Shown piece after piece: positions 1 to 64,000 of a DNA stretch of 64,000 nt (positions are counted from its first letter, which is position 1; each line of letters starts with the position of its first letter). The position numbers and the translations under genes are program-made. Source of the DNA: Escherichia coli (GTDB lineage: Bacteria; Pseudomonadota; Gammaproteobacteria; Enterobacterales; Enterobacteriaceae); NCBI RefSeq assembly GCF_016026235.1, contig NZ_CP065613.1; one strand, given 5' to 3'. Under the pieces are notes generated by a model that was not told the origin of the DNA, did not search any database, and saw only the letters and a program-made list of their open reading frames with translations.

Positions 1-322
1 TTTCTTTACTGATACTGTCTTTTGTATCGACATAAATGTTATTCTCATTCCAGAATAAGAGGAAGTTTTTGTTACAGGAGTAGAGGCCAGTTAAGCAGAG
101 TACGATTATTAGCAAGAATAGTATGGCTTTGTAGCGCATTTACATTCCTTTCAGTATGTTACGTTCACAAAGTGAGTTTCTTTTCTTTATATAAACCACA
201 GCAATAATTAAACCCACTCTACGGTAAGCTTATTTTAATAATGAAGGATTATCTGCACGCTACCGCCGTGCCAGGAAAAATATCAGCAGGTATATAACGG
301 TAACTTATTCATTACCGTTAAT

Positions 323-358
323 CCCGGCAGCGTAGAAAAAACGCTGCCGGGTTATTTA
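323..358 (+). terminator. Putative rho-independent (possibly bidirectional) terminator between the upstream + strand transcript and yhjJ
   Basis: Inverted repeat CCCGGCAGCG (323-332) / CGCTGCCGGG (342-351) with an A-rich loop, followed by TTATTTATT; directly abuts the yhjJ stop at 359-361. Confidence 0.5.
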
Positions 359-1855
359 TTACTGCGCGGGTGGAATATCCGAAACTTCAGGATGGACGTC
401 ATCCGTGGCTACGGATGTCGTCACAGCCGCAGTCGATGGGGCCATGATTTGATCCCAGACCGCCTGCAACGCTTTCATGTTAAATTCCGGCTCGCCTTTC
501 GGCTGCAGCAGTATTAACGCCATATCATTCGACAACTGCTGACGCAGATCCTGATTTAACATCTCCACCGTCAGGCTGTTAAGGAAATCCTGCCGCAGTT
601 TCTGATACTGCTCCGGCGCGATATCGACGACCTGATTTTGCAACGAACGCATCCGCTGACCCATCAGAATATCGGTATCAGCCCGCGCATAGGCGGCAAA
701 CAGTTTCTGCAGCTCCAGTTTCTTTTGCGCCACTAACGCATTGAACTCTTCTTCCGGCAGACCTTTATCGCGAACCTTCGCCAGTTCACGCGCCACCAGA
801 TTAAGGTTGCTGTTCAGCTTGTCGTTTGGTGATTCGATGTTGATGGCACACTGCGCACGCAGATACAGCACACGGCAGTCAAATCCAAGACCGATGTCTT
901 TGCTGTTACTGGCGCTTAACGCTTGCTGAACATGCCAGAACAGCGCCTCACGGGCCAGGTCCGCACGCCAGTAGCGCAGCAGTGCGGCTGATTCACGAAT
1001 CGGCTGCCACGGCGTATCCCACATGATAGATAACCGGTCCTGACGCACCGCGTCAGTCATAATACTCACCGCTTCCGCACGCAGCGGAGAAAGCGTCGGC
1101 ACCGGAGCCGGTGTTTCACGTTTGCCTTTCAGTTCGCCAAACGTTTTGTTGATTTGGTCGACAACCGAGCGCGCATCCACGTTTCCCACCACCAGCAGCG
1201 TCATTGCATCCGGGGTGTACCATTTCTGATAGAAATCTTTAATCTTTTCCGCTTCAACGGGTTGTTTCAGCGGATCGGCAGGATCGTGACCTAACAAGGT
1301 TGACCCTTTCAGACGATAGCGCCACCAGCCCTCTTTAGTATCGGCAGGCCAGGTTGCCACCATGTCCTGACTTTGCAGCGCGTGGTTGATGGTTTCTGGC
1401 GTGATAGTCAGTTTGCCAGTGGCATTTGCCAGATAAGAGAGCGCCTCTTTCAGCAAATCGTTACGGTTATTGGGCAAACTCAGATTAAACAGCGTGGTGT
1501 CATAAGAGACAATTACCGGCGGCATCGGGCGTTTAGGGTCGATCCCCTGCTGCCACAATGAACGCGCCTGTGCTGCGTCAAGGCCACCGCTTTGCGTTAG
1601 CGCAATACGAGGGATGGCGTGACTGTAACCGCTCTGTTGTGTACTTTCGGCGAGCGAACCGGTATTAACCAGCAGGCGAATTTCAACACGATCGCTGGGA
1701 CGCTGGGGGGTGGTCAGCACTTGCCACTGTAAACCGTTGGAAAGCGTCCCCTGTTGCCATGCTGGATCAGGCTGGAGCGCATCTGCCTGCACATAGCCAG
1801 CAGTGGCCATCATCAGCAAACCGCCCGCTAAAAGTCGAATTTTTGTGCCCTGCAT
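359..1855 (-). CDS. yhjJ: Predicted M16-family zinc peptidase (periplasmic, signal peptide)
   Basis: 498-aa ORF matching my recollection of E. coli YhjJ in length and sequence; sits upstream of dctA as in K-12. Confidence 0.85.
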   Translation of the reverse strand: MQGTKIRLLAGGLLMMATAGYVQADALQPDPAWQQGTLSNGLQWQVLTTPQRPSDRVEIRLLVNTGSLAESTQQSGYSHAIPRIALTQSGGLDAAQARSLWQQGIDPKRPMPPVIVSYDTTLFNLSLPNNRNDLLKEALSYLANATGKLTITPETINHALQSQDMVATWPADTKEGWWRYRLKGSTLLGHDPADPLKQPVEAEKIKDFYQKWYTPDAMTLLVVGNVDARSVVDQINKTFGELKGKRETPAPVPTLSPLRAEAVSIMTDAVRQDRLSIMWDTPWQPIRESAALLRYWRADLAREALFWHVQQALSASNSKDIGLGFDCRVLYLRAQCAINIESPNDKLNSNLNLVARELAKVRDKGLPEEEFNALVAQKKLELQKLFAAYARADTDILMGQRMRSLQNQVVDIAPEQYQKLRQDFLNSLTVEMLNQDLRQQLSNDMALILLQPKGEPEFNMKALQAVWDQIMAPSTAAVTTSVATDDVHPEVSDIPPAQ

Positions 1856-2075: not shown

Positions 2076-3398
<1,323 letters not shown>

Positions 3399-3544
3399 TT
3401 ATGGGGTACCTGCGGCCTTAAAATAACACCCAGACAACATCACAGAAATGTACCTGGATCATAATTGAAACAAAAAGGTTAAAAAGTTTGAGCTGGCTCG
3501 CACAAACCAGCACTTTTTAAAGTTTTGTAATCAGTTTGGGGTAG

Positions 3545-5533
3545 CTACTTTTCTTCCAGGTAACTCTCTTCGAAGATTTCAATAGGGAGTGGACGAGCAA
3601 AAAGGAAGCCCTGGGCAATACCAACGCCCGCTTTTGCCAGCCAGTCGCGTTGTGCTTCAGTCTCCACGCCTTCGGCAATCATTTGTAAGTTCAGGCTCTG
3701 CGCCAGCATGATAATTGCAGCAATCATGCTGCTATCTTCCGGCAAGCCTTCAACAAACATTTTGTCGATTTTCAGAACGTCGATTGGCAACGATTTCATA
3801 TGCTGCAGCTGACGCAGCCCTGCGTAGCCCATGCCGAAATCATCCAGCGCCACCCGAACTCCGGCATTACGCAGCGGACGGAGGATTGCCACCGCAGCAT
3901 GAGGGTCGTCAATACGTCGGCTTTCTGTCACTTCCAGAATCAGTGTTCCCGGCTGAATGCGATAGCGGGTTAACAGTTCCAGCATATCCGCCACCATATT
4001 CGGGTGCATCAGTTGCAGCGCAGAGAGGTTTACCGACAAGGGCAGCATAATGCCGCGCTCTTGCCAGGCTGCAAGCAATCGACAGGACTCTTCCAGCACC
4101 CAGTGACCGACGGTAACCATCAGCCCACAGCACTCAATGCGATCGATTAAGCCATCCGGCAGGTCCCAACTGCCATCCGGTTGCTGGATACGCAGTAACA
4201 CTTCCGCACTGACCAGTTTACCGCTGGTCATCTCGACCTGTGGCTGTAACCAAATAGCAAACTGATGATTTTCCAGTGCATTAAGGATATCGCTCTCTTC
4301 CGTCAACCGCTTCTGGGCGGCTTCCATCTGCTGCGGATCAAAGAACTGAATCTGATTCTTGCCTTTATGGCGAGCGGTAAATGCCGCAGAAATAGCGCGA
4401 CTGTAAAGCTGTTCGGCGGTGAGATCGCCGTAGAACATCGCCACGCCAATGCTACAGTGCGGACGGAGTTGAATACGTTCAATCGGCAGGCGCTCGCTCA
4501 TGATAGTGAGCACTTGCTGACCCAAAGTGATTGCGTGCCACGGTTCCTGTACACCGTTGGCAATGACAGCAAAGTCATAACCGCTAATCTGCGCGAGGAT
4601 CATACGTGGCGACAGTACCGATTTGAGTTTTTCCACCAGCGTCAGCAGCAGAATTTCTCGTTGCGCCTCTTTCAGCACGCCCGCAGTATCACGCAGGGTT
4701 TCACAGGTGATGATCATCAGCGCGGTGGTTTGTTTACGCGCGACAACCTGCTCCAGCATCTCCATCAGCAAGGCTTTGTTCGGCAAATCCGACACCGGGA
4801 AGCGCATCGCATTTTCGTTCTGTTCTTCATAATGGCGCTGCAGCAATTGCTGGTTGAGGTTGTAACTGCGCACCAACATACCGATTTCATCGTCCTGATG
4901 CAGACGCGGTAATGCCAGTTGGTGACCAACAAGCTCCTGGGCTGGGATGGCGTTAAGTTCGCGAGCAATATTGCGTAACGGATGCAAAATCAGGCGGTTA
5001 ATGCACCAGCTAATCGCCACCGTCAATATTAACGACAAAAGTAAGTAAATGGTCACTAACGTTGAGAGGGTGCTCATCACGAACTTATACATACGGAAGG
5101 AATCCGCCTGTAGTACCAGATAGGCAATTGGCTGCGGGTTTGCCGGACGTTCGAGCGAGTAAACGCCCAGCGAGATTTGAACCGGTAGCTCAAACAGGCG
5201 AGTAACCATTACCGGCACCGGGCGCTCTGGAATAAAACTTTTACGCAGCGCCTGGAACTGGTTGGGCAGCACTACATCGGCACGGCTGACCACGCCTGCC
5301 GGTTTAATGCTGGCAAGAATAGCTTCCGCTTCGGGAATATCACCTTTCAAAATGGCTGAAGATAAAGGTTCGCGGACAGAGCGAGCAATGCTTTCCAGTT
5401 GCGTAGCCGTGTTATAGCGATTCTGCTGGACCAGATGGAACAGCAAAACGGTGCAAAAAATAAAAACGAACACCAGGACAACGGCTGCCACCATTGCCAT
5501 CTGCTTGATTGTTAACGAGCGACTTACGCGCAA
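3545..5533 (-). CDS. pdeK: c-di-GMP phosphodiesterase, membrane-anchored with degenerate GGDEF and EAL domains
   Basis: 662-aa ORF with an N-terminal TM segment and a C-terminal EAL-type region (ELxR-like, DDFGxGYAGL motifs visible); sits between dctA and bcsC as yhjK/pdeK does in K-12. Confidence 0.85.
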
Positions 5534-5614
5534 ATTGTCTCCCCCCGGAAATCCCAGATTGCCGCCCGAGTATACCCGATCGCAGCGGCATTAAGAGAGG
5601 CGCTATCTGAAAAC

Positions 5615-8600
5615 TTACCAGTCGGCGTAAGGTATCAGCGGCTGCGGCGGTAAATCCATGTCACCCTGCCATCCGGCGGCGGAATAACGTACGTAGAGCA
5701 GGAAATGGCTGGGTGCGTAATCTTTCGCCTGCTGGATATCAATTGCCGTGCCAACAAACCAGTTGGAAGTAACACGTCGTTCAAGTAATGCCCGCGCCGT
5801 GTAGCCGAAGCCCTGACTGCTGCCGCCATCGTTGGATTGCCGCGCAGCTTCTTCCTGCCAGTCGGTCGGGATCAGATTCATCAGCGGATAACGCGGCATG
5901 GTTTTGGTGCGTGAATGCGACCACGAGCCAGACGCCCCCAACTCCCACGACCAGTTTTCCGTGCGCTCCCGCCACATCACCGGTATGGCAAACGACAGGT
6001 ATTCCTGCGGACTGTAGTAACCGCCCTGACCGAGTGAGTAGCCACTCAGATCTTTGTCGTAATGCCAGATCATGTTGTTCAGGCCGATTGTGACGCGGCG
6101 ATTGTTCTGGTTAATGACCTTATAGTAATAGCCCGTCATCCAGCGCACGCGCCAGTTATCTTCGACATTTTTACCGGTTAACTGGTCGCCACTAAGCGAT
6201 GCCCAGACGCCGTTTGCTTCACCTTTATCGTAGCTCAGACTTAGCCCCACACCGTCGGCACGTACGCCACCCCATTTTTTCCCGGTATTGCTCGGGGAGT
6301 CTTTTTGCCCACCAAAGGCCAGCAAAGAACTGGAGATGGGCCGACGGTGGGCGTTAACGGTGTAACCCAGCGGCCCGATATCATCGCTGTAACTGATGCC
6401 GCCGACCACATCCACCACGTTGAAGCCCATCGGCGTGGTACCGATATCCCAGCTCCAGACGTCATTTCGCCAGCCGACCGCCACGCTGGCACCGGAATCC
6501 GACTGGCTGCGGTTGCCGCTACAGTCCTGTAATGTACAGGTGCCCCAGTTATCATCCCATTTACCATCGGCATTAGTGGAGAAACTGCCGACGTTCATAT
6601 TGACGAAATCACTGCGAAAGAACATCCGCCCGTCAGAATACGGCGCATCCACCTGCAACATGGTAGTGTGCGCTTTCAGATCGGAGTAACCACCGGTGCC
6701 GCTCGAACCCCAGTAATCATGCTCGAGGGTGACGTTAAGATCCTGCTGGCGATAGAGGTCCGCCGCATCGCTGCGCACGCCGCGTTTCAGCCAGTCATCT
6801 TTCTCGTCGTTACGGGTCAGTCGGGTAAAGGTGTCGTTATCCTGCGGACGCGTCGTGGTCACACCGGATGCGACCATGGCGTCTTTGTAGGTTTCCAGCG
6901 CCTGCTTTGGATCGCCCGCCTGCGCTTCAAACTTCGCACCATCACGCAGTACCATCGCACTTTCCATCGACGGCGGCTGAGATTTTGCCTGCGGGATCAA
7001 CTTATTAAACGTCTGCTGCGCCGCTGCGGTATCGCCAAGCTGCGCCTGCGCCAGCGCCACGCGCCGCTGTGTGTTCAGCGAGGCGTTATCGGTAGCGGGC
7101 AGTTTCGCCAGCTGGCTACGTGCCGCAGCTGTGTCACCGGCAGCAATATCCACTTCCGTCAGCCCCAGAATGGCATCGGCGTTAGTTGGCTCCCGCGTCA
7201 GGACATTCTGATACGCAGCGCGGGCGGCGGTGTAATCACGTCGCTGCTGCGCCCAGTCAGCCAGCGTGAGGTCAATACGCGTGGAAGGTGGTTGCTGGCG
7301 CAGCATCGCTTCCGCTTCTGCCTCTTTGCCGCTTTCTCGCAGGCGGTTAGCGGTTTCCAGCACCTGATCGCTTTGCAGTCGATTAACCAGCTCCTGAATA
7401 TTGCTGTTCCACTGCGCACGCGGCAGGCTGTTGATATGCGCCAGCGCCGCTCTGTCCTGGTCATGACCAGAGAGGTACAGCCCGTAAGCGTAAACCTGCT
7501 CCGGGTCGTTCGACTTCTGCTGCGCCAGATTGCGCATTAACGTATCGGCCTGGCTGCGTTGTCCGGCCTGCCAGAGATCCTGCGAAAGTCGGTAAGTAAT
7601 CCATACGCTGCCGGGGTCCAGCGCCAGTCGTTGCCGCTGAAGTGCTGCCGCCTGCGCCCATTTGCCCTGGTTTTCCAGTGCCTCTGCCTGCTGTGCCAGA
7701 CGGTCGTTTTGCAGGCTGCGTTCGATATCATCAATGCTACGCCGCTGACTGGCAGAGAGCGAGGCGATAAACGCTTCAGCTTTTTCTGGCGATTGCTGGC
7801 GGTAAATATTTGCCAGCCCGCGCACGGCGTTAGTGTTGCCGCTGTCCATACGCAAGGTCTGCTGATAATAACGTTCGGCGGCGGGATAATCTTTTCGCGC
7901 CATCGCCACATCGCCCAGCCCCAGCACTGCATAACTGTCGGTGTTATCGACATTACGCGCCTGCTGGAACAGGCGTTCTGCCCGGTCAGGATTATTGGCT
8001 TTCAGCGCAGCATCGCCCTGCTGGATCGCCAGCCAGTAGCGGTTTACTTTCAGCAGACTGTTCCATTTGTCGTTGTTGCTGCTGTGCGGGTCCAGTGCGA
8101 GGGCTTTTTCCAGATTCGCCACTGCATTGGCGCGATCGCCTTTCTGAGAATACGCCTGGCCCAGCGCCCCCAGAGCTTCACTGTCTTTCGGGTTCGCCCG
8201 CACCGCCTGTTGTAGTTCGGGAATGGCTTTACCCGCCATACCAGAGTCCACCGCCGCTAAACCTTGCGCACGAGCGCGGAAAGCAGGATCGGCCAGCTGT
8301 TTTTGCTGTTCTGCCAGTTGCGATTGCGCAGCCGCCACGCTATCGCCATCACTAAAGATCGAGAGATATTTTTTCAGCGCCGACACACTGGCATCACTGA
8401 CGGGCATGTCTTTAATCTGCCCGTACCAGATTTTAGAGGCCCCTTCGCGCCCGGCGTTCGATTTTGCCATCTGTTCCAGGACGGCAAAACCTTCGTCACG
8501 GCGATCGCTACTAAACAGCAATAGCGCCAGATTGTTTTGCAGGCCCGTATTGCCCGGTGCATCCGCATTGATGCGTTTTAACTGATTAATCGCTTCGCCA

Positions 8601-9088
8601 CGGCGAGCCGGAATTTTCGCCACCGTACTCCAGTACTCGACAGCAATGTCACCTTCCGGCGGCGCACCGTTGAACAGTTTGTTGTAACTCGCCACAGCTT
8701 CTTCTGCATGACCGGTCGTCGCCTGCAATCGTGCCTGTTGCAGTGCCTGACGACCATCCGGCGTGGAAAGTAGCATCGTAGTCCGCGACGATTTATACGC
8801 ATTTGAACTCGGCGCTAACTGCGACAGCCGATCGAGCTGTTTTTGCGCGCCATCAATATCGCCCTGACGTAACAAAGAACGGAAACGGGCGGCAACGACG
8901 TCCGGGTTATTCGGATCAATAAGTTCCAGCCGATACAACGACTGTTGCACCAGGTCTTCACGATGGGTCGCTTCGCCTAACCGAACTTGCTCCAGCAACT
9001 GTTGCTGAGCGGTTGGTGCTGCCTCGACCATCGGCATGACGGCCAGACCGAGGGAAAGCGTGAATATGTTTAGTGTGAATTTGCGCAT
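5615..9088 (-). CDS. bcsC: Cellulose synthase operon protein C (TPR-repeat periplasmic scaffold plus outer-membrane beta-barrel)
   Basis: 1157-aa ORF with a signal peptide, many TPR-like repeats and a C-terminal beta-barrel-like region; last gene of the bcsRQABZC cluster. Confidence 0.93.
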
Positions 9089-10176
9089 TCCTGGCCCCAG
9101 TCAGGTAATAACTCACCTTTTGTCGAGAAGCGGAAACGGTGTTGATCCCAGCCTTGTCCAAACAGGGTCAGCACATAGTTGTAATAGGCATCGCTGCCGG
9201 GAAAGTTATCGGCCACGCGCTGGCGCTGAACGGCCTGCGCATCGCGGTTTTGTAAAAAGGGCAGCATGGCGGCAGAAAAACCGACCGGTCCTTTACCCTG
9301 CGCTTTCCCCGTAGCCACATCCACTTTTTCCGGCGGATAACCGTTTTTCTCAGTGAATGTCGCCATCGGTTTAAACCGGTTGAGCATCCGCGCTTTCTGC
9401 GGATCGCTGTCAGGCATCATGCCTACCCACATGTAAACGCGGATAGCGTCGTAGCTGCTGATCAATGTTTTTTCGGCTTTTAGCTGCCAGCCTTTGTCTT
9501 TCTCATAGCGCACCCAGTCTGGCGAAAAGCCTTTCGGGGCGGTTTCCAGCAATAAACGTTGATTGGTTTCGCGCAGCGTAGTCCACGGCGCGCCAAAGCG
9601 GGTGAAATACTGCGCCAGCGTCGGCGGCAGGTAGCTGGGGTTAAAACGCCAGCTGTTATCCTCAGCAAAACCCACTTTGCCCGGTAACAACATGGAACCC
9701 AGCCCAAGCACCGTCACCACTTCCTCCCGCGCAATACGTTTTAGCAACGCGCTGCCGATGTCGGTATAACGCTGCTCTTTCCACAAACGACCCGCCTCCA
9801 GCAACGACCAGGCCATCCAGACATCACCATCGGAGGCCGAATTGCTGTCCAGCACTTCCCACTTACTGTTCTCTTTCTTGCCCCACAGCCAGGCGGGCAA
9901 ACGTTCTTTTAAAGAACCCTGAGCAAGATTGTTCTGCGTCCAGTCGAGAATATTATCGAAAGCTGCACGGTCGTTAGCCGCCAGGGCAAAGAACATGCCG
10001 TAACTTTGCCCTTCAGAGGTGGTGATTTTGCGCGCGTCGCTGGAGTCGATGACGCGCCCTTCCTGACTGATGTAATCCTTTTTAAACTGCTCCCAGGCAG
10101 GCCAGGTACAGGCTGCCTGAACACTAAAGGCAGCCAACAGCAGCATCGTCACGAGTCCACTACGCAACACATTCAT
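9070..10176 (-). CDS. bcsZ: Endo-1,4-beta-glucanase (GH8 cellulase) of the cellulose synthesis operon
   Basis: ORF track gives 370 aa; the canonical start MNVLRSG (ATG verified at 10174-10176) gives 368 aa. Overlaps the bcsC start by 19 nt. Confidence 0.92.
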
Positions 10177-10182
10177 CTTCAA

Positions 10183-12522
10183 TTACTCGTTATCCGGGTT
10201 AAGACGACGACGACTAATAATTCGCAGCAGACGCCACAGTACCCATGCCAGCAATATCACACTGATAGCCGCCAGCACCGCCAGCAGAATCGGATGGTTT
10301 GCCAGCGCATACCACAAGCGCTCGAACCACGGCAGATGACCTACGTAATAAACGTCGCCAACACGTAGGCTGTTGATACCGGACTCGCGGATCACCGCGA
10401 CCGAACCGAACATGGTGGCGCGTTTGCCGCTATCGTTCACCGCATCGTTAAGCATTTCATAACCGCGAGGGCTATCTGCCAGCAGCGCAATCACGCTGCG
10501 CTGGTCGTTATATGGCGACTGGAAGCCAATCACCGCCGCCATCGCACCGGAAGAGGTCAGCGTTGACTGGGTTTCTGCCGCGCGATCGCTCTCGTCCGGC
10601 ACAATGCCGGGGAACGGGGTCTGGCGCATCGGTGTTTTCACCCAGCTTTCGGTCGCCTGCACCAATAGGTCGATCTGCTTATCGTCTTTCAGTTTGTCCG
10701 GGATACCACCGATGATCATGATGTCGGCATCTTTGCCCTGAATGGTGCTGCCATCATCGGTCACCGTCAGATTAATCGCCGGGAAGCCCGTCTGTGCGCC
10801 GATAAAACCAACAGTATTCAGCAAGGTTTCCATCTGTGCTTCGTTAGGCGTTTTCGGCATCACGGTGATGGTTTGCGACAGATCCGCCATCCGGCTGAAC
10901 GGGAAGCCCGCGTTAGCAAAGGCGCGTAGATCCGGCATCGGGATGAAGTGGTAATACTTCGAGAAGTCGATGGTGGAATCGTCACCAATCACCACATGAT
11001 TCTGCACCGGCTGGAAGGTAATACAGTTATCCACCGAACCGCCCGGCATCGGGTTCATATACTCAAAGTCGAAGCGCAGCTGGTTGGTCGCGCCCAGTTT
11101 CAGCGCCGGAATAGAGACATCCGTTTTGCCATCCAGCAAACCTTGTAATACCGGAATCCGCAGCAGCAGGCGATTCGCCTCCTGTTTGCTGCTCAGGTTG
11201 AAGGATTGCAGGAACTGGTTATTCAGGCTGATATCCATCCGCGAACTGTCTTTCACCGGCGGCATGGTGTAGCGGTAATTAATATCCATATCAATGCCGG
11301 TACTGCGCATCAGGTAGAGATCTGGCGGCAGGTTTAGCGAAACGTTAATCGCTGCTGGCTCAAGACCGCTGGATTGTAACTGTTCTTCATAGGTTTTCAG
11401 TTCACCAAAGGTGACCGGACGATCGGTACGCACCCAGTTCGGCGCATCGTACGGCTTACGCGGTAGCAGCGGTTTCACTTCATTCACTACCACGCTTTCA
11501 CCACGGAACAGAATGTTACCCTGAGCGATACCTTTCGCTGCCTGCAACAGGTCTTTGTGGTCACGACCAAACACCACCAGCAGTTTGATGTAAGGATTCT
11601 GCGGATGGTTAATCATCTCAATCACCGGGGCTTTTACCGCCGGATGATCGCGCAGGAAGTCCGGCCGTTTGTCGTTGGTTGCAAAGACAATGGCATTGCG
11701 ATCCGGCAGTTGGTTATAGAGTACCGGGAAGTTCTGCCCACGCCAGCCAGAACGCGAACCAAACCACGAGGCGACAATGGCAGAGGCTTGTTGCAGCCCA
11801 ACATCCGGCGCACCCGCAAAGACCATCGGCAAGGTGTTGGTGCGGTTATCACGCGGATCAAAGAATGGCACCGGGAAGTGTGACAGGTCATTCTTCACAT
11901 TCAGGGTCTGATAGGTCAGATCCAGTCCACTGCTCCGCCCAACATCCAGCCAAAGCGTGGTGCTGGCCGGGTTTTCGCACACGTCCTGATAATGGCCGAC
12001 AAACTCCAGCCGCACACGGTTGAAGTCGGTAATAAACAGTGGGTTAATGGGCATTTGCGCCAGCGTTTTTTTACCCAACTGTTCTTTGGTCACTGGCAGC
12101 ACGCCCATCAGCTCATCATTGAGATAAACCTTTAACTGCGACTGGACAGGCAGTAACGATGGCGATGGCGTGTATTCGAGGTTGAGCATCGCCTTCGTCA
12201 CCACTTCATCGCTGCGCATACCAAACTCAATGCTGCCGTTCGGGTTAATGCCACGTAGCACCATGCTGCCCGGCGGCGGTGCAATTTGCGCAAAGGTCAG
12301 CTTCACATCACGCGAAGGACCGTTCTGCGCCACGACTGGCGCATCAGCGCCCTGCACGCCCGGCATCACTTGCCCCACCTGCGGATTTTGTTCCGTCTGG
12401 GCGGCTACAGCTGGCTCAGCATTGATCAGTGGTTGCGTTGCTGGCGTCGCCTGCGTCATGAAAGAGGGGAACGCACTCATCCCCATAGCCACTGCACAAA
12501 TCCAGAATAGTTTTCTTTTCAT
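10183..12522 (-). CDS. bcsB: Cellulose synthase periplasmic subunit B (c-di-GMP-regulated)
   Basis: ORF track gives 808 aa; trimmed to the MKRKLFW start (ATG verified at 12520-12522) gives 779 aa, matching E. coli BcsB. Confidence 0.93.
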   Translation of the reverse strand: MKRKLFWICAVAMGMSAFPSFMTQATPATQPLINAEPAVAAQTEQNPQVGQVMPGVQGADAPVVAQNGPSRDVKLTFAQIAPPPGSMVLRGINPNGSIEFGMRSDEVVTKAMLNLEYTPSPSLLPVQSQLKVYLNDELMGVLPVTKEQLGKKTLAQMPINPLFITDFNRVRLEFVGHYQDVCENPASTTLWLDVGRSSGLDLTYQTLNVKNDLSHFPVPFFDPRDNRTNTLPMVFAGAPDVGLQQASAIVASWFGSRSGWRGQNFPVLYNQLPDRNAIVFATNDKRPDFLRDHPAVKAPVIEMINHPQNPYIKLLVVFGRDHKDLLQAAKGIAQGNILFRGESVVVNEVKPLLPRKPYDAPNWVRTDRPVTFGELKTYEEQLQSSGLEPAAINVSLNLPPDLYLMRSTGIDMDINYRYTMPPVKDSSRMDISLNNQFLQSFNLSSKQEANRLLLRIPVLQGLLDGKTDVSIPALKLGATNQLRFDFEYMNPMPGGSVDNCITFQPVQNHVVIGDDSTIDFSKYYHFIPMPDLRAFANAGFPFSRMADLSQTITVMPKTPNEAQMETLLNTVGFIGAQTGFPAINLTVTDDGSTIQGKDADIMIIGGIPDKLKDDKQIDLLVQATESWVKTPMRQTPFPGIVPDESDRAAETQSTLTSSGAMAAVIGFQSPYNDQRSVIALLADSPRGYEMLNDAVNDSGKRATMFGSVAVIRESGINSLRVGDVYYVGHLPWFERLWYALANHPILLAVLAAISVILLAWVLWRLLRIISRRRLNPDNE

Positions 12523-26671: not shown

Positions 26672-26821
26672 AACCCGGATTCTCTGTAGTGACCCGCAGC
26701 CTGGAACTGCGTGTCTGTATTGCTCACAAATCAATTCCCGCCCAGGTCGGGCAGGGAATGAAGTATTGCTGCCGGATGGCGCTGCACGCAGAGGCACAGC
26801 GCCACCGGGTATGGCTTTTAA

Positions 26822-28429
26822 TTATTCGATAGAGACGTTTTCGAAGTGATGTTTGCCTAATGGATCAACCACATAGCCTTTAACTTCTTTGCGTACCGGT
26901 TCAAACACGGTGGAGTGAGCGATGATCAGTGCCGGAGCCTGATCGTGCATCACCACCTGCGCTTGCTTGTACAGTTCAACGCGTTTGTTATGGTCGTCGG
27001 TAGCACGCGCCGGTTGAATCAGATCTTCAAACGGTTTGTAGCACCATTTTGAGTAGTTGGAGCCTTGTTCAGAGGCGGCGCAGCTGAACAGAGTGGCGAA
27101 GAAGTTATCCGGGTCCCCGTTATCGCCAGTCCAGCCCATCATTACCGTCTGGTGCTCGCCATCTTTCGCACGCTTGAGGTACTCACCCCATTCGTAGGTG
27201 ACAATTTTGGCCTGCACGCCGACTTTCGCCCAGTCAGCCTGAATCATCTCCGCCATGCGGCGAGCGTTCGGGTTATACGGACGTTGTACCGGCATCGCCC
27301 ACAGGTCGATGGAGAAACCTTTTTCCAGACCCGCTTCTTTCAGCAAGGCTTTCGCTTTTTCAGGATCGTAGGTGTAGTCCTGAACGTCGTCGTTATAGCC
27401 CCACATGGTTGGCGGGATCAGGTTTTTCGCTGATACGCCCGCGCCCTGATAAACCGCTTTGATGATCGCGTCTTTGTTCACCGCGTAGGTCAGAGCCTGG
27501 CGAACTTTCACGTCATCGAGTGGTTTTTTCTGCACGTTATACGAGAGATAACCGACGTTCAGCCCCGGCATTTCCATCAGATTGATGGATTTATCCTGCT
27601 TCATGCGAGCAATATCTGCCGGGTTCGGGTACGGCATCACCTGGCATTCATTCTTCTGCAATTTAGCGTAACGCACGGAAGCGTCAGGGGTAATAGAGAA
27701 GACCAGCGTATCGATCTGCGGTTTGGTGCCCCAGTAGCCATCAAACGCTTTGTAGCGGATACGGGAATCTTTTTGATACTGCTGTAACTGGAACGGACCG
27801 GTACCGATTGGGTTGAGGTCCAGTTTTTCCGGTGTACCAGCTTTCATCATCGCGTCAGCATATTCTTTTGACAGAATAGAGGCGAAGTCCATTGCCAGAT
27901 CAGCGAGGAACGGCGCTTCCGGTCGAGTCAGCACAAACTGAACGGTGTTGTCGTCCACCTTTTTCACTTCGCTGATCAGCTCTGGCAAGCCCATGCCTTC
28001 GAAGTATTCGTAGCTGCCGCCAGATACTTTATGGTACGGGTTTTGCGCGTTTTTCTGACGATCAAACGAGAACACCACGTCATCGGCGTTCATTTCGCGC
28101 GTCGGTTTGAATTCTTTATTGTCGTGCCACTTCACACCTTTACGCAGATGGAAGGTGTAGGTTTTACCGTCTTCGCTGACTTCCCACTTTTCAGCGAGGC
28201 CCGGGATCACTTCAGTGGTGCCGATTTTAAATTCAACCAGGCGGTTATAAAGCGGTACGGAAGAGGCGTCATAGGTGGTACCGGAGGTAAACAGCTGCGG
28301 GTTAAACCCTTCCGGAGATCCTTCTGAGCAATAAACCAGAGTTTTAGCCTGAACACTTGCTGCGACGGTCATAGCCACCAGGCTGAGACCAAGCTTCAGC
28401 ATCCCTGACTTTTTCAAGGAAATACGCAT
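26822..28429 (-). CDS. dppA: Periplasmic dipeptide-binding protein
   Basis: 535-aa ORF with a signal peptide (MRISLKKSGMLKLGLSLVAMTVAASVQA); matches DppA. Confidence 0.94.
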   Translation of the reverse strand: MRISLKKSGMLKLGLSLVAMTVAASVQAKTLVYCSEGSPEGFNPQLFTSGTTYDASSVPLYNRLVEFKIGTTEVIPGLAEKWEVSEDGKTYTFHLRKGVKWHDNKEFKPTREMNADDVVFSFDRQKNAQNPYHKVSGGSYEYFEGMGLPELISEVKKVDDNTVQFVLTRPEAPFLADLAMDFASILSKEYADAMMKAGTPEKLDLNPIGTGPFQLQQYQKDSRIRYKAFDGYWGTKPQIDTLVFSITPDASVRYAKLQKNECQVMPYPNPADIARMKQDKSINLMEMPGLNVGYLSYNVQKKPLDDVKVRQALTYAVNKDAIIKAVYQGAGVSAKNLIPPTMWGYNDDVQDYTYDPEKAKALLKEAGLEKGFSIDLWAMPVQRPYNPNARRMAEMIQADWAKVGVQAKIVTYEWGEYLKRAKDGEHQTVMMGWTGDNGDPDNFFATLFSCAASEQGSNYSKWCYKPFEDLIQPARATDDHNKRVELYKQAQVVMHDQAPALIIAHSTVFEPVRKEVKGYVVDPLGKHHFENVSIE

Positions 28430-29047
28430 TATTCTGCTCCAATTGTGATGTTTGTTGTTTTAACCCTTTGCAGTGGGTTGTCGCTGCCTGACCTTTTTTG
28501 TTTTTTGCCCGGTCGGGTCAACGTTATGAGGTGGGGATGCCGTACTAATTAACATCAGTGTAACAGTGCGGATCCTCCATAAAATGCCCCTCGTGACCTA
28601 CAATCTGTCAACAGAATGTGAAAACGTCAATACAGCCAACCGGGATTTACACCAACGGTGAGAATCCACAAACAAAGATTAAAAAAACTTCAAACAGCTA
28701 TTTGCAGCAGAGAAATTTGTGCTACTCCAACATGACCAGAACAATCAGCTTAATATTTAGCAACATTTGGTGATTAAGTTTTATGCATTTAATGAAAAAA
28801 ATCTGAGGAAAAGGTGGATATCTGAGCGATTAATACCATGAACGCTAAAACGCACAGCGGAAAATGCCAGCGCCAGCCATAAGTAACGCAAAAAAAGATT
28901 TAAGCAAATATAAAAAAAGACAATGGTTTCTGTCACAAATCCGTTAATGGATAGTGAGATATGGGGCGCAAATTTGGCAGGGAAATGTGTGGTGTGTAGG
29001 TCGAATAAGGCGGTCGCGCCGCATCCGACAATAAGTGCGGTGCCGTT

Positions 29048-29083
29048 GCCTGATGCGACGCTGACGCGTCTTATCAGGCCTAC
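29048..29083. repeat. REP (repetitive extragenic palindrome) element
   Basis: GCCTGATGCGACGCTGACGCGTCTTATCAGGCCTAC, a canonical enterobacterial REP palindrome. Confidence 0.7.
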
Positions 29084-29140
29084 GTCGAGTCGAACCTCCC
29101 TGCCCCCGGAGGTTCTCATCCTCATGGGTTGCAGAAAGCA

Positions 29141-29168
29141 AAAAACCAGCCCGTAGGCTGGTTTTTCT
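29141..29168 (-). terminator. Rho-independent terminator downstream of tRNA-Pro
   Basis: On the minus strand: hairpin CCAGCC-TACG-GGCTGG followed by TTTTT, immediately 3' of the tRNA. Confidence 0.65.
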
Positions 29169-29172
29169 AAAT

Positions 29173-29249
<77 letters not shown>

Positions 29250-37082: not shown

Positions 37083-38376
37083 CTGAGGGATCCCCAGAAA
37101 ATTTAGTAAACCATTATCATATTGGTATACCGTTGCTGTAGAACTTTCAGCCCTGCGTCAAGTGACAGTGTGTTTAGTATGAGTGGAGAATGTCGAATCA
37201 CATTCTCCGCCAGTTTTAATAACGAGATGACTCGCCTGTGCTTCACTGTATTTGCCTGATATTTATGATGTATCCCTTTGTTTTCCAGGCTGAAACCGCT
37301 TAACCACATAATGATACTGGCTAATGTTGCGATCAGACTCAATACCGTGACCCGCCCGGATGAATGACTGGCACCAAACCGTAGTCCAAATCCCCAGCGA
37401 GGATTTTTTTCATCCCTGAAATTTTGCTCAATTTGCATTCTACGGCTGTATAATTTCATTACCTGTTTTGGCGAGAACTCAGTACTGTTTGTGAAAATAA
37501 ACCATGGTGATTTCCCGGCAGTACGAGCTTTAGCCGTCACCGATGGTCTGGTTGCTCTTTCCTTCGAGCGTTTAAATCTACGACCTTTAGGCTTACTTTT
37601 ATAAAGATAAAAATGCCCTTCATGTTGTGCATTTTTATCTCGACCCAGCAGGCCTTCACCTAAATAAATTGCTGTCGTTGATGCTTTTGTGCCTGAGTCC
37701 GACACCTTTTCCCAGCCATTACCAACATTGTAATAATGATTGCCCAGTACCCGGCAAATATAGGTCCAGCCACGGGAGCGGAGCTGTTGGAACCATCGCC
37801 CCTGAAAACCGGCATCTGTAATAACAATGACATCAGTCCCGGGGGAAAAGCACTCAGCAAGCGATTCCAGAAAACGCTCATGTACATCTGCATTCGCTGT
37901 CTGTGATGATGGAACGACACAACTCATCAACGGTAAAGAACGCCCGTCACATGCCAGGCTTGCCCGCAAAAGCTGAAAACGAGAGGCATGATAAGCACTC
38001 CAGTCAATGAGTATCACAACACGAGACATTCCCCGCGTAATCTTTTGGGTAATTCGCTGAAAAATGGTGGAAACCTCATTTTGCAAATGTCGATTCCCCA
38101 ACAGTCGATCCACCCGCTTTATTTTGTTTTTAACTGATGCCGTACCGGTTAAATGACGCCCGATACTGGTAAGTGTGAGGGAAGCGCCATTTATTACAGC
38201 ATTAGTTGCGTCAATCAGTGATTTTTGACGGTAAAGATGCAAAGGGGCCAGTATGTTGTTAAGGAAATTTTGGCATAATGAACGTGCAGGCATAGTGGTG
38301 ATCTCCTTGAAATTGTTAGCACAATCAATTAGATCACATCTCACTATGCCTGTCTTGTTTTCTGGGGATTCCTCAG
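37083..38376 (-). mobile_element. IS10-like insertion sequence (IS4 family), about 1.29 kb, with imperfect terminal inverted repeats and flanking direct repeats
   Basis: Left end CTGAGGGATCCCCAGAAAA (37083-) and right end, reverse-complemented, CTGAGGAATCCCCAGAAAA resemble the IS10 termini I recall (CTGAxGAATCCCC). Flanked by AGGATTTCCT at 37073-37082 and 38377-38386, so the boundary is uncertain by 1 bp. Confidence 0.8.
37103..38293 (-). CDS. IS4-family (IS10-like) DDE transposase
   Basis: ORF track gives 443 aa from 38434; the likely real start is the ATG at 38291-38293, inside the IS (MPARSLCQNF..., 396 aa). Motifs shared with IS10 transposase: IKRVDRLLGNRHL, VITDAGF, YSRRMQIEQNFRD. Confidence 0.8.
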   Translation of the reverse strand: MPARSLCQNFLNNILAPLHLYRQKSLIDATNAVINGASLTLTSIGRHLTGTASVKNKIKRVDRLLGNRHLQNEVSTIFQRITQKITRGMSRVVILIDWSAYHASRFQLLRASLACDGRSLPLMSCVVPSSQTANADVHERFLESLAECFSPGTDVIVITDAGFQGRWFQQLRSRGWTYICRVLGNHYYNVGNGWEKVSDSGTKASTTAIYLGEGLLGRDKNAQHEGHFYLYKSKPKGRRFKRSKERATRPSVTAKARTAGKSPWFIFTNSTEFSPKQVMKLYSRRMQIEQNFRDEKNPRWGFGLRFGASHSSGRVTVLSLIATLASIIMWLSGFSLENKGIHHKYQANTVKHRRVISLLKLAENVIRHSPLILNTLSLDAGLKVLQQRYTNMIMVY

Positions 38377-38417
38377 AGGATTTCCTCCCCCTTTCGTTCA
38401 AAATCTGTAGTTTCTGG

Positions 38418-39620
38418 CTAAATATGCGCCTCACGCAATACTTTCTGCTCTGGCTGACGAATCGTCGTAGAAAGCGCCAATGACAGAATCAGCAGAGCAA
38501 AGATGACGTAGAACGTCACATAGAAGCCGCCAAACAGTGAGGCAATAATCGAACCACAAATGCTACCGATACCGAAACCGAGGTAAATCACACCGTAGTT
38601 TTTCGCCAGGTTATTGAGGCCGAAGAACTCACTGACCAGTGACGGAAAGACGGTAATAGTGCCGCCAAAGTTAAATGCCACGCAGGCAATCGCTGCAAAG
38701 AACATCACTGCATTCAATGGTGCAAACAGCAGGGCCGCCATACCCACCAGCGAAATTACCTGACCAATGGTGATAACACGGATACGGGCGATTTTGTCAG
38801 ACAGAATGCCCAGCACCAGACGACCTGAAAGGTTAGCAATAGAAATAACCGTTACTGCGTTGGCTGCGGAAATTGCATCAAGATGCGCCAGGCTCTGAGC
38901 AATATCTTTCGCCACACCAATCACATACAGACCGCTCATGCAGGCAGTAAGGAACATCACCGCTAACATCCAGTACTGCGGTTTACGCATCGACTCTGCC
39001 AGCGTGTAATCTTTCTCCACTACGCCATTGCTGGTTTTCACTTCCTGTTTTGGTGCGTCTTTCATTAACGTTGCGCCGAAAACAATCATCACCAGCGCAA
39101 TCGCTCCCCAAATCACAAAGGTTTTTTCCAGACCGACCGTTTCCAGCAGCTGCGTGTCGATAAATTTGAAACCCAGGCTACCCAGACCATAAGAACCGAT
39201 AGCGAACGCGGAGATCAGACCTTTACGCTCCGGGAACCACTTCACGCAGTTAGAGAGCGTCAGCAGGTAACCCGCGCCATCCGCCAGACCGACCAGCACA
39301 CCGGCGCTTAACCACAGCATCATCAGGTTGTCAGAATGCGCTGTCAGGAAGAACCCTAATCCCAGCAAAATGCCGGAAGCGATGGTGACGCGTTTAACAC
39401 CAAAACGTTCCTGCAATTTGCCCGCAACAGAAGACGAAATTGCCAGCCCCAGACTTAACAAGCCGAAAGAGAAAGCGACCTGGCTTACCGGCGCATCCAG
39501 CTTGGCGGAAAGCGCGCCGTTAAACAGGCTCCAGGTATAAACCGACCCCAGCGCAAACTGGGTAATGATAGTACCGATGAGTGTCAGCCAGCGGGTACGC
39601 TGATAATTTGAAGGTGTCAT
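38418..39620 (-). CDS. yhjX: MFS-family transporter (putative oxalate/formate antiporter-like)
   Basis: ORF track gives 415 aa; trimmed to the MTPSNYQRTRW start (ATG verified at 39618-39620). Multi-pass MFS-like protein matching YhjX. C-terminus not checked against a reference. Confidence 0.85.
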   Translation of the reverse strand: MTPSNYQRTRWLTLIGTIITQFALGSVYTWSLFNGALSAKLDAPVSQVAFSFGLLSLGLAISSSVAGKLQERFGVKRVTIASGILLGLGFFLTAHSDNLMMLWLSAGVLVGLADGAGYLLTLSNCVKWFPERKGLISAFAIGSYGLGSLGFKFIDTQLLETVGLEKTFVIWGAIALVMIVFGATLMKDAPKQEVKTSNGVVEKDYTLAESMRKPQYWMLAVMFLTACMSGLYVIGVAKDIAQSLAHLDAISAANAVTVISIANLSGRLVLGILSDKIARIRVITIGQVISLVGMAALLFAPLNAVMFFAAIACVAFNFGGTITVFPSLVSEFFGLNNLAKNYGVIYLGFGIGSICGSIIASLFGGFYVTFYVIFALLILSLALSTTIRQPEQKVLREAHI

Positions 39621-63253: not shown

Positions 63254-64000
63254 TTACATATGCGCCGCGATTAACCGTTGGTTATCCTGGTACATTGCGA
63301 ACAGGTAGTTGTTATAACTCTTCCCTTTGGTCGAGTAGCCCTTCAGCTTGTGAATCATCGCTGTGGCAGTCACTTCCTGATCCGCTTTACGCAGCTGCGC
63401 ACGCGATTTACGGAACGAAGAGTAAGCCGGGTGCGTATTGAGGTTAGTGACATAGGCGCTCACCGATTCTTTGACAGAACTAAACTGTGAGTACCCTTTC
63501 ACTTTACCCGGCGCATTGGTACAACGTCCTTTCATGCATTTCATGCCGAAAAGATTGTTGTTGTTGCGCGCCAGCTTCGACGTTCCCCAACCGCTTTCTG
63601 CTGCAGCCATCGTCGCCACCATACTGGTGGGGATAATGTCTACGCGTTCAAGCAAGGTATTCCACGGGATTTTTCGCGTATTACCAGACCACTTCACCTT
63701 GTAGCGTTTGGCGATGTCTTTCAGACGCGCACGCTCAGCAGGTGACCATTGGCCCTGATACTGTTTTGAAATCAGCCAGTTACGTTCTGCAGTAATGGCT
63801 GCATTTTGGCTGGTAATGTAAGGCATTACGGTCCGGAGAAACGCCTTTTTCCTTGGTGTTCCGGAAGGGTATTTTCGCAAATCAGGAAGTGAACTACTCT
63901 TTGCACTATTGCGAGAATACTCTTGTTTACTGCTTACCTGTTTATTACTAGCTTTAGTTAAGTGGGACTTTTGACTCGCTGTTGTTGTGTGCGTCTTCGC
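63254..64000 (-). CDS. bax: Putative glucosaminidase / amidase-domain protein Bax (5' end beyond the window)
   Basis: ORF track gives 208 aa from a TTG at 63880, but the frame stays open on the minus strand to the window edge (no in-frame stop across 63881-64000), so the gene is truncated by the window and not by mutation. Confidence 0.8.
   Translation of the reverse strand, partial: AKTHTTTASQKSHLTKASNKQVSSKQEYSRNSAKSSSLPDLRKYPSGTPRKKAFLRTVMPYITSQNAAITAERNWLISKQYQGQWSPAERARLKDIAKRYKVKWSGNTRKIPWNTLLERVDIIPTSMVATMAAAESGWGTSKLARNNNNLFGMKCMKGRCTNAPGKVKGYSQFSSVKESVSAYVTNLNTHPAYSSFRKSRAQLRKADQEVTATAMIHKLKGYSTKGKSYNNYLFAMYQDNQRLIAAHM

Follow-up and report, generated by a model that had tools for sequence, protein, structure and literature searches.

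The window, that is, the whole 64,000-nt stretch of DNA analyzed here, matches E. coli FDAARGOS_943 (NZ_CP065615.1) at 100% identity, its first base falling on record position 4112926. At this place RefSeq annotates a 531-bp coding sequence on the minus strand (4112534–4113064), which encodes the 176-aa 'hypothetical protein' WP_038339137.1. The window border cuts this gene: its first part occupies window positions 1–139, and the gene runs for another 392 nt beyond the window start. The features of the region are as follows.

1–139, minus strand: first 46 codons of WP_038339137.1, an open frame and RefSeq coding sequence with its ATG at 139–137
145–150, minus strand: AAGGAA, Shine-Dalgarno-like, with the AGGA core 6 nt before the ATG
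22–207, plus strand: spurious 61-aa open reading frame (ORF) with a TTG start, from a mechanical ORF listing
140–322, no strand assigned: AT-rich upstream leader of the WP_038339137.1 gene (34.4% G+C), lying 5′ of the ATG at 139
140–202, no strand assigned: gene-proximal leader, common only to cassette-less alleles (TUM13936, 23CRST013 type)
203–358, no strand assigned: conserved yhjJ-proximal arm of an island, present in 200 of 200 island-bearing genomes
295–320, no strand assigned: hairpin 2, stem of 9–10 bp (AACGGTAA...TTACCGTT), folding on both strands
323–360, plus strand: hairpin 1 and T-tract, built like an intrinsic terminator of rightward transcription (terminator scan and folding)
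359–1855, minus strand: yhjJ, a core E. coli gene for an M16 metallopeptidase, whose stop codon is the right boundary of the island

The minus-strand frame opened by the ATG at 139–137 begins MRYKAILFLLIIVLCLTGLYSCNKNF..., and its fuller reading through base 1 is MRYKAILFLLIIVLCLTGLYSCNKNFLLFWNENNIYVDTKDSISKE; all 176 codons are present in the parent record. This ATG is the first possible start, because an in-frame TAA (142–140) stands immediately before it. A minimal ATG–TAA start–stop pair, in frame directly before the ATG of the gene (window 145–137, minus strand; GGAATGTAAATG), was also observed and is probably incidental. The frame was intact in all five alleles read, namely those of FDAARGOS_943, TUM13936, GF4-3, the common type represented by L005, and E. 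coli 042, in which the protein has 194 aa. Comparison of the window's allele with two divergent alleles yielded a dN/dS of 0.15 (dN = 0.09, dS = 0.61–0.63), with 44 synonymous and 36–39 non-synonymous differences. With its open frame, start codon, ribosome-binding site, purifying selection and homologues elsewhere, the minus-strand gene shows all the marks of a protein-coding gene; it is real and under purifying selection.

These results overturn the central claim of the original prediction, which had found no assignable gene in positions 1–322. The minus-strand frame is open from the ATG at 139–137 to base 1, and a RefSeq coding sequence covers 1–139 on that strand. The ORF list behind the prediction omitted ORFs running off the source sequence and only the plus strand had been considered, which together account for the gene-less appearance of the stretch. 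The claim is therefore an edge artefact: the window border cuts a minus-strand gene. A general caution follows, as a window edge can conceal a gene on the opposite strand, and ordinary coding DNA then resembles an unexplained AT-rich stretch.

Other parts of the prediction agreed with our data. The G+C content of window 1–322 is 34.8% vs 51.0% for the whole 64-kb window, which bears out the AT-richness described for the first ~320 bp, and in a G+C profile only 0.64% of 322-bp windows were as AT-rich. All three plus-strand frames do stop within the first 60 nt (one stop per frame, at nt 10–12, 56–58 and 33–35, the latest being that at 56–58). The frame at 22–207, the sole plus-strand ORF of at least 20 aa in window 1–322, runs antisense to the real minus-strand gene, is unannotated in all records and is closed in the GF4-3 allele.

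Several observations were made elsewhere in the window. Other 322-bp stretches with a G+C content of 38% or less lie at about 16.0–16.9, 28.6, 36.6–37.3, 47.9–48.7 and 57.7–58.5 kb, with a minimum of 19.6%; by annotation, they correspond to the bcsR–bcsE divergent spacer, the IS1/dppA junction, lpfA–lpfB, the upstream region of prepilin peptidase/rpsJ, and the interior of secY–rpmJ. The dppA gene (26819–29203) is interrupted by IS1A and appears in the annotation as two pseudogene halves, and three identical type I toxin genes of the Ldr family are arranged in tandem at 19892–20965 with a spacing of 483 bp. Two copies of the ISEc60 (IS4-like) transposase gene, at 37875–39065 and 63789–64000 (with 63491–63715), bracket a segment that starts with slyX and fkpA, takes in the rps/rpl operons and ends at a truncated mscL; the first copy connects this segment directly with the lpf fimbrial operon beside eptB. 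Since the slyX/fkpA–rps/rpl and lpf/eptB-side regions are ~240 kb apart in K-12, the bracketed segment looks like an IS-mediated inversion or rearrangement.

To place the region in the species, we compared it with complete E. coli genomes. Homology to 5,422 of the 5,426 genomes starts only at window position 358, the yhjJ stop. In typical E. coli, kdgK and yhjJ are convergent and are separated by a 95-bp spacer, unrelated in sequence, that carries a minus-oriented terminator. In FDAARGOS_943, 4,056 bp take the place of this spacer, reaching from one stop codon to the other, and window 1–357 lies inside the replacement. The two arrangements share the position between convergent genes and a hairpin after the yhjJ stop; unlike the K-12-type spacer, however, the 4.06 kb found here contain three genes and a plus-oriented terminator. 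The refutation that had been looked for in an alignment with K-12, namely that the stretch is the upstream gene's conserved 3′ flank, was thus not obtained, the K-12-type spacer being an unrelated 95 bp.

The three genes are, in order, those for a DUF3142 protein (plus strand), a 680-aa TPR-annotated protein (plus strand) and WP_038339137.1 (minus strand), and the 3′ ends of the last two overlap by 23 bp. Pfam gave only sub-threshold TPR matches for the 680-aa protein; across the island and the cassette neighbours described below, searches of Pfam, NCBIfam, PADLOC and PHROGs recovered only DUF3142, weak TPR and, in one GF4-3 gene, TriTu. Literature searches on DUF3142, TriTu and kdgK with yhjJ turned up nothing relevant apart from one incidental mention of DUF3142. 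We also observed that the TPR-like gene (L001 9589–11631, upstream of the window) starts within the last 14 bp of the DUF3142 gene, and that its protein starts with a lipoprotein-type signal, ...LISANVNAC, as read in the GF4-3 copy. The G+C content is 49.7% in the DUF3142 gene, 45.7% in the TPR gene, 36.7% in the WP_038339137.1 gene and 34.4% in the leader, and 56% and 54% in the flanking core genes kdgK and yhjJ.

At sensitive settings, the gene and the 203–358 arm were each present in 200 of the 5,426 complete E. coli genomes (3.7%). The arm occurs in a single copy per genome, always on the chromosome and at one locus, E. coli 042 and an ST69 strain included. At near-identity, window 1–360 was recovered from three complete genomes, one of which matched only 203–360. 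An atypical composition is thus combined with a patchy distribution at a fixed locus, which identifies the replacement as a genomic island. No integrase, tRNA or IS was found in the island annotation. Neither direct nor inverted repeats bound the island, so there is no support for its being a transposon or integrative element. One explanation put forward originally, a strain-specific insertion remnant, is essentially right about the insertion: this is evident from homology that begins only at 358 and from the presence of 1–360 in three genomes, but the island is intact and holds an intact gene under purifying selection, which is not what a remnant would look like. WP_038339137.1 has already been annotated in RefSeq as a hypothetical protein, and since the cut gene lies in an island that just a few percent of the strains of this species possess, the finding is an ordinary feature of the accessory genome.

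Alignment of the island-bearing alleles revealed, in other strains, a cassette of 1.5–1.7 kb, consisting of four small minus-strand genes located between what are window positions 149 and 203 here. Window 3–149 corresponds in the alignment to the start of the gene in the other forms, and 203–418 to their yhjJ-proximal arm; window 150–202 has no BLAST match in cassette-bearing alleles and aligns with TUM13936 and 23CRST013. Five structural forms were distinguished.

Common form (L005): DUF3142–TPR and, between yhjJ and the gene, four additional small genes on the minus strand (141, 84, 159 and 100 aa)
042 form (E. coli 042): all five minus-strand genes of the common form, with DUF3142–TPR cleanly missing (3.29 kb)
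GF4-3 form (GF4-3): a cassette that differs in part and encodes a TriTu immunity protein (PF24689, E = 7.5e-17)
Window form (FDAARGOS_943, TUM13936): no cassette
23CRST013 form (23CRST013): cassette absent and window 203–247 likewise missing, but with the 140–202 leader

The island of E. coli 042 and ~190 further genomes (EC042_RS20345–20365, 'hypothetical proteins') occupies the same locus as that of the window, with an arm ~92% identical and an orthologue 73–84% identical to WP_038339137.1 at the protein level. It differs from the window form in the four additional small minus-strand genes between 149 and 203 and, in 042, in the absence of DUF3142–TPR. The window's allele is common to only 2–3 complete genomes and Escherichia sp. 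E1V33. In the GF4-3 cassette (L003 6528–7958), TriTu is accompanied by unannotated or uncharacterized small ORFs of 86, 100 and 159 aa. In E. coli 042, the homologue runs into kdgK, sharing 29 bp with its 3′ end, and its C-terminus is distinct and longer, giving 194 aa in total. The Escherichia C-terminus may have arisen from a junction with DUF3142–TPR; in the 042 comparison (L014 4725–6953 vs L013 1136–4421), the difference is a clean 3.29-kb indel that ends at the TPR stop.

The lack of the four-gene cassette, which most island-bearing strains possess, raises the question of whether the minus-strand gene is a decaying foreign pseudogene and the region junk left by a deletion. Such a history would also suit the C-terminus, which past ~residue 150 shows no likeness to that of the Bacteroidota homologues and is modeled with less confidence. 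Decay is nevertheless very unlikely, as the frame is intact in five of five alleles (four aligned plus the 194-aa version of 042), dN/dS is 0.15, the Shine-Dalgarno sequence is kept and the invariant core motifs of the family are retained.

We then turned to the DNA between the gene and yhjJ. The strong terminator hairpin that had been placed before yhjJ was confirmed: its stem (hairpin 1, 323–351) comprises 10–11 bp, nine of them G–C, with a 7-nt loop and is followed by TTATTTATTA; over the whole feature to position 360, its tail on the plus strand reads TTATTTATT. The second hairpin (295–320) precedes it. On either strand, the tandem hairpins (295–351) fold at −35.6 kcal/mol vs −14.2 ± 3.0 kcal/mol for shuffled sequences (z = −7.2). 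The plus strand at 323–360 has the makeup of an intrinsic terminator, the only canonical one that the terminator scan detected in the region. No minus-strand terminator serving yhjJ appeared in the same scan; the minus tails read AUUAACGG and AUAUACCU, with no U-tract. The stem of hairpin 2 is kept across six alleles save for a G–U change in TUM13936 and a mismatch in GF4-3, other changes falling in the loop. The arm (203–358) is ~92% identical in nearly all 200 genomes, with 197 of them in the 90–95% band and a few matching only from window position 248.

A small RNA had been suggested for this region, and the hairpins lend themselves to such a reading, with a plus-strand transcript lying within ~200–360 and ending at the 323–351 hairpin and its U-tract. 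Its appeal is that the only canonical intrinsic terminator of the region is plus-oriented, that the arm (~92%) is better conserved among the variants than the adjacent coding sequence (75–85%), and that the hairpin stems are largely kept, loops being variable. However, when the region was searched with cmscan, flanks included, none of 4,227 Rfam families matched at E ≤ 1 on either strand. Standard and looser sigma-70 scans of both strands of 140–322 found no convincing or conserved promoter, and consensus scans no promoter-like site on the plus strand between 57 and 322; a weak minus-strand −10 candidate at 253–248 is not conserved among the alleles either. Moreover, no compensatory change occurred among the six sequence variants available, and the conservation gradient is equally well explained by linkage to the 96–97% identical yhjJ flank. 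We therefore consider a small RNA highly improbable, and the suggestion of a small RNA locus is not upheld.

The same terminator bears on another early proposal, that the stretch is the 3′ UTR of the upstream gene. The TPR gene, the nearest on the plus strand, ends 369 bp before the window and the gap is mostly occupied by the minus-strand gene, so the proposal fails as the main explanation. In its wider form, the proposal makes the whole region an extended 3′ UTR, or read-through tail, belonging to the convergent DUF3142–TPR operon and ending at the plus-strand terminator, with the minus-strand ORF as a chance feature. Between the TPR stop and 323–360, the scan showed no terminator-like site, and plus-strand transcripts plausibly cross window 1–322; read-through of the DUF3142–TPR operon up to this terminator is possible. 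Yet the minus-strand ORF is conserved at a dN/dS of 0.15 and has homologues in a second phylum, and E. coli 042 keeps both the gene and the hairpins without DUF3142–TPR. An antisense tail may thus exist but does not account for the sequence, and we give the wider form very little credence.

As the U-tract of hairpin 1 is present on the plus strand only, the tandem hairpins probably stop convergent transcripts from the kdgK/DUF3142–TPR side before these enter yhjJ in antisense. Transcripts of yhjJ itself would be terminated weakly by the pair. The WP_038339137.1 gene is probably expressed via read-through from yhjJ, a weak putative promoter in the AT-rich leader, or both, and the five-gene array of other strains may be expressed by the same route. 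H-NS usually silences foreign DNA that is as AT-rich as this. Taken together, these data make us confident that window 1–322 is the right edge of an acquired, strain-variable island, holding the start of a real gene for a 176-aa protein, its AT-rich leader and tandem hairpins.

To characterize the protein, we searched 5.8 billion proteins and obtained 168 homologues of WP_038339137.1 at E ≤ 1e-3. A 40-sequence alignment contained 19 invariant columns, including a YGEND...Y..F(R/K)QFK...H core. Nothing in Pfam reached its cut-off (the only hit, Staphopain_pro, scored 14.9 bits vs a cut-off of 27), NCBIfam, PADLOC and PHROGs gave no match at E ≤ 0.01, and a profile search of PDB sequences yielded no relative. 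The family is thus uncharacterized and without a Pfam or NCBIfam model. An AlphaFold (AF2) model built with the alignment (mean pLDDT 85.4, pTM 0.77) consists of an N-terminal helix (residues 2–26) followed by an eight-stranded beta-sandwich. Past ~residue 150, where the Escherichia proteins diverge from the conserved C-terminus of the Bacteroidota homologues, model confidence falls. Compared with transthyretin-like and TssJ-like beta-sandwich lipoproteins, WP_038339137.1 shows 3–10% identity, and the scores reflect a shared general fold only.

Window 1–139 encodes a positively charged, hydrophobic N-terminus that ends in a lipobox-like LTGLYS-C, followed by the start of the beta-sandwich. The relaxed PROSITE lipobox rule (PS51257-type) requires a positive n-region and a hydrophobic h-region and then [LVI][ASTVI][GAS]-C. 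The MRYKAILFLLIIVLCLTGLYS-C of WP_038339137.1 fits this rule, with an unusual Y at −2. An allele with 82% identity is named 'Lipoprotein' in one UniRef entry. Lipidation is nevertheless uncertain because of this Y, because the TUM13936 allele has N at the −2 position and because the Bacteroidota homologues have no Cys at the lipobox position. From its sequence, the N-terminus would target the protein to the envelope either as a lipoprotein or via an uncleaved signal anchor, the two being equally possible, and the transthyretin-like beta-sandwich of the model would then lie outside the cytoplasm. WP_038339137.1 is therefore predicted to be a membrane-anchored beta-sandwich protein.

The distribution of homologues suggests where the gene came from. 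Named homologues above ~70% identity all belong to Escherichia/Shigella, E. whittamii and Escherichia sp. E4742 among them. Those that follow, with ~50–57% identity, are metagenomic or come from Riemerella, Tenacibaculum, Aureispira and Cyclobacteriaceae; all named homologues outside Escherichia/Shigella are Bacteroidota, an assignment that we checked here for Riemerella and Aureispira. Eight of the nine non-Escherichia homologue loci with computed composition have a G+C content of 30–35%. Por_Secre_tail, a sorting domain of type IX secretion, occurs in neighbours of the homologues in Aureispira and one metagenome contig. In an exact-pattern scan of 100,044 species genomes (one genome per species), the hairpin arm was found in Escherichia sp. 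E1V33 only, so at this stringency it is not the native spacer of another sampled species. The E1V33 locus carries the homologue and is colinear with that of FDAARGOS_943 at 95% identity over 6.7 kb. We infer that the gene was transferred from a low-G+C, Bacteroidota-like donor, and the AT-richness of the region would result from this foreign origin (36.7% vs 54–56% G+C in the flanking core genes). The presence of homologues in E. whittamii, Escherichia sp. E4742 and E1V33 would also be compatible with presence of the gene in the Escherichia ancestor and its loss from most E. coli.

The genomic neighbourhoods of the Bacteroidota homologues point to a possible function. In Tenacibaculum, the homologue is part of an array of small genes, all in one orientation and variable between strains, with SMI1_KNR4, DUF1963 and DUF6794; the array looks like an immunity-gene island. 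In three Tenacibaculum sp. assemblies (L015, L019 and L020; about 2400–12000), this array comprises 10–15 co-oriented genes downstream of a yebC-like gene and includes a thioredoxin-like protein; the possibility that the three homologues are paralogues was rejected, as they represent the same locus in three assemblies. A metagenome (JGI) contig holds a homologue in a similar array with SMI1_KNR4, and the Aureispira homologue adjoins ankyrin proteins, a tyrosine recombinase and IS elements. Overall, homologues stand beside known immunity-type families in four lineages, E. coli GF4-3 with its TriTu gene included, the contexts of four others were uninformative, and no cognate toxin was found.

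Orphan immunity-gene arrays of polymorphic toxin/type VI systems, for example the acquired interbacterial defence clusters of Bacteroidales, have reportedly been described (Zhang et al. 2012; Ross et al. 2019). The E. coli locus resembles such arrays in that its genes are small, co-oriented, strain-variable and low in G+C, sit at a hot spot and in one allele include TriTu. The Bacteroidota homologues do so in adjoining SMI1_KNR4, DUF1963 or ankyrin genes, with a tyrosine recombinase near that of Aureispira. Unlike them, the E. coli locus has no toxin gene nearby and no recombinase or secretion-system gene, and the protein matches no immunity family described so far (below cut-off in Pfam; no match in NCBIfam, PADLOC or PHROGs at E ≤ 0.01). 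By analogy, WP_038339137.1 might be an orphan immunity-type protein against an envelope-acting toxin, a speculative assignment that we think is rather unlikely to hold. More doubtful still is the broader idea that the gene founds an undescribed envelope-anchored beta-sandwich immunity family passed from Bacteroidota to Escherichia, and that kdgK–yhjJ would be a hot spot that collects orphan immunity genes, TriTu included, against contact-dependent or secreted toxins of gut competitors.

In summary, this study documents a small accessory island at kdgK–yhjJ that exists in several structural forms, and biologically it adds little. Should WP_038339137.1 turn out to be an immunity protein, kdgK–yhjJ would neatly illustrate how interbacterial defence genes are acquired across phyla.
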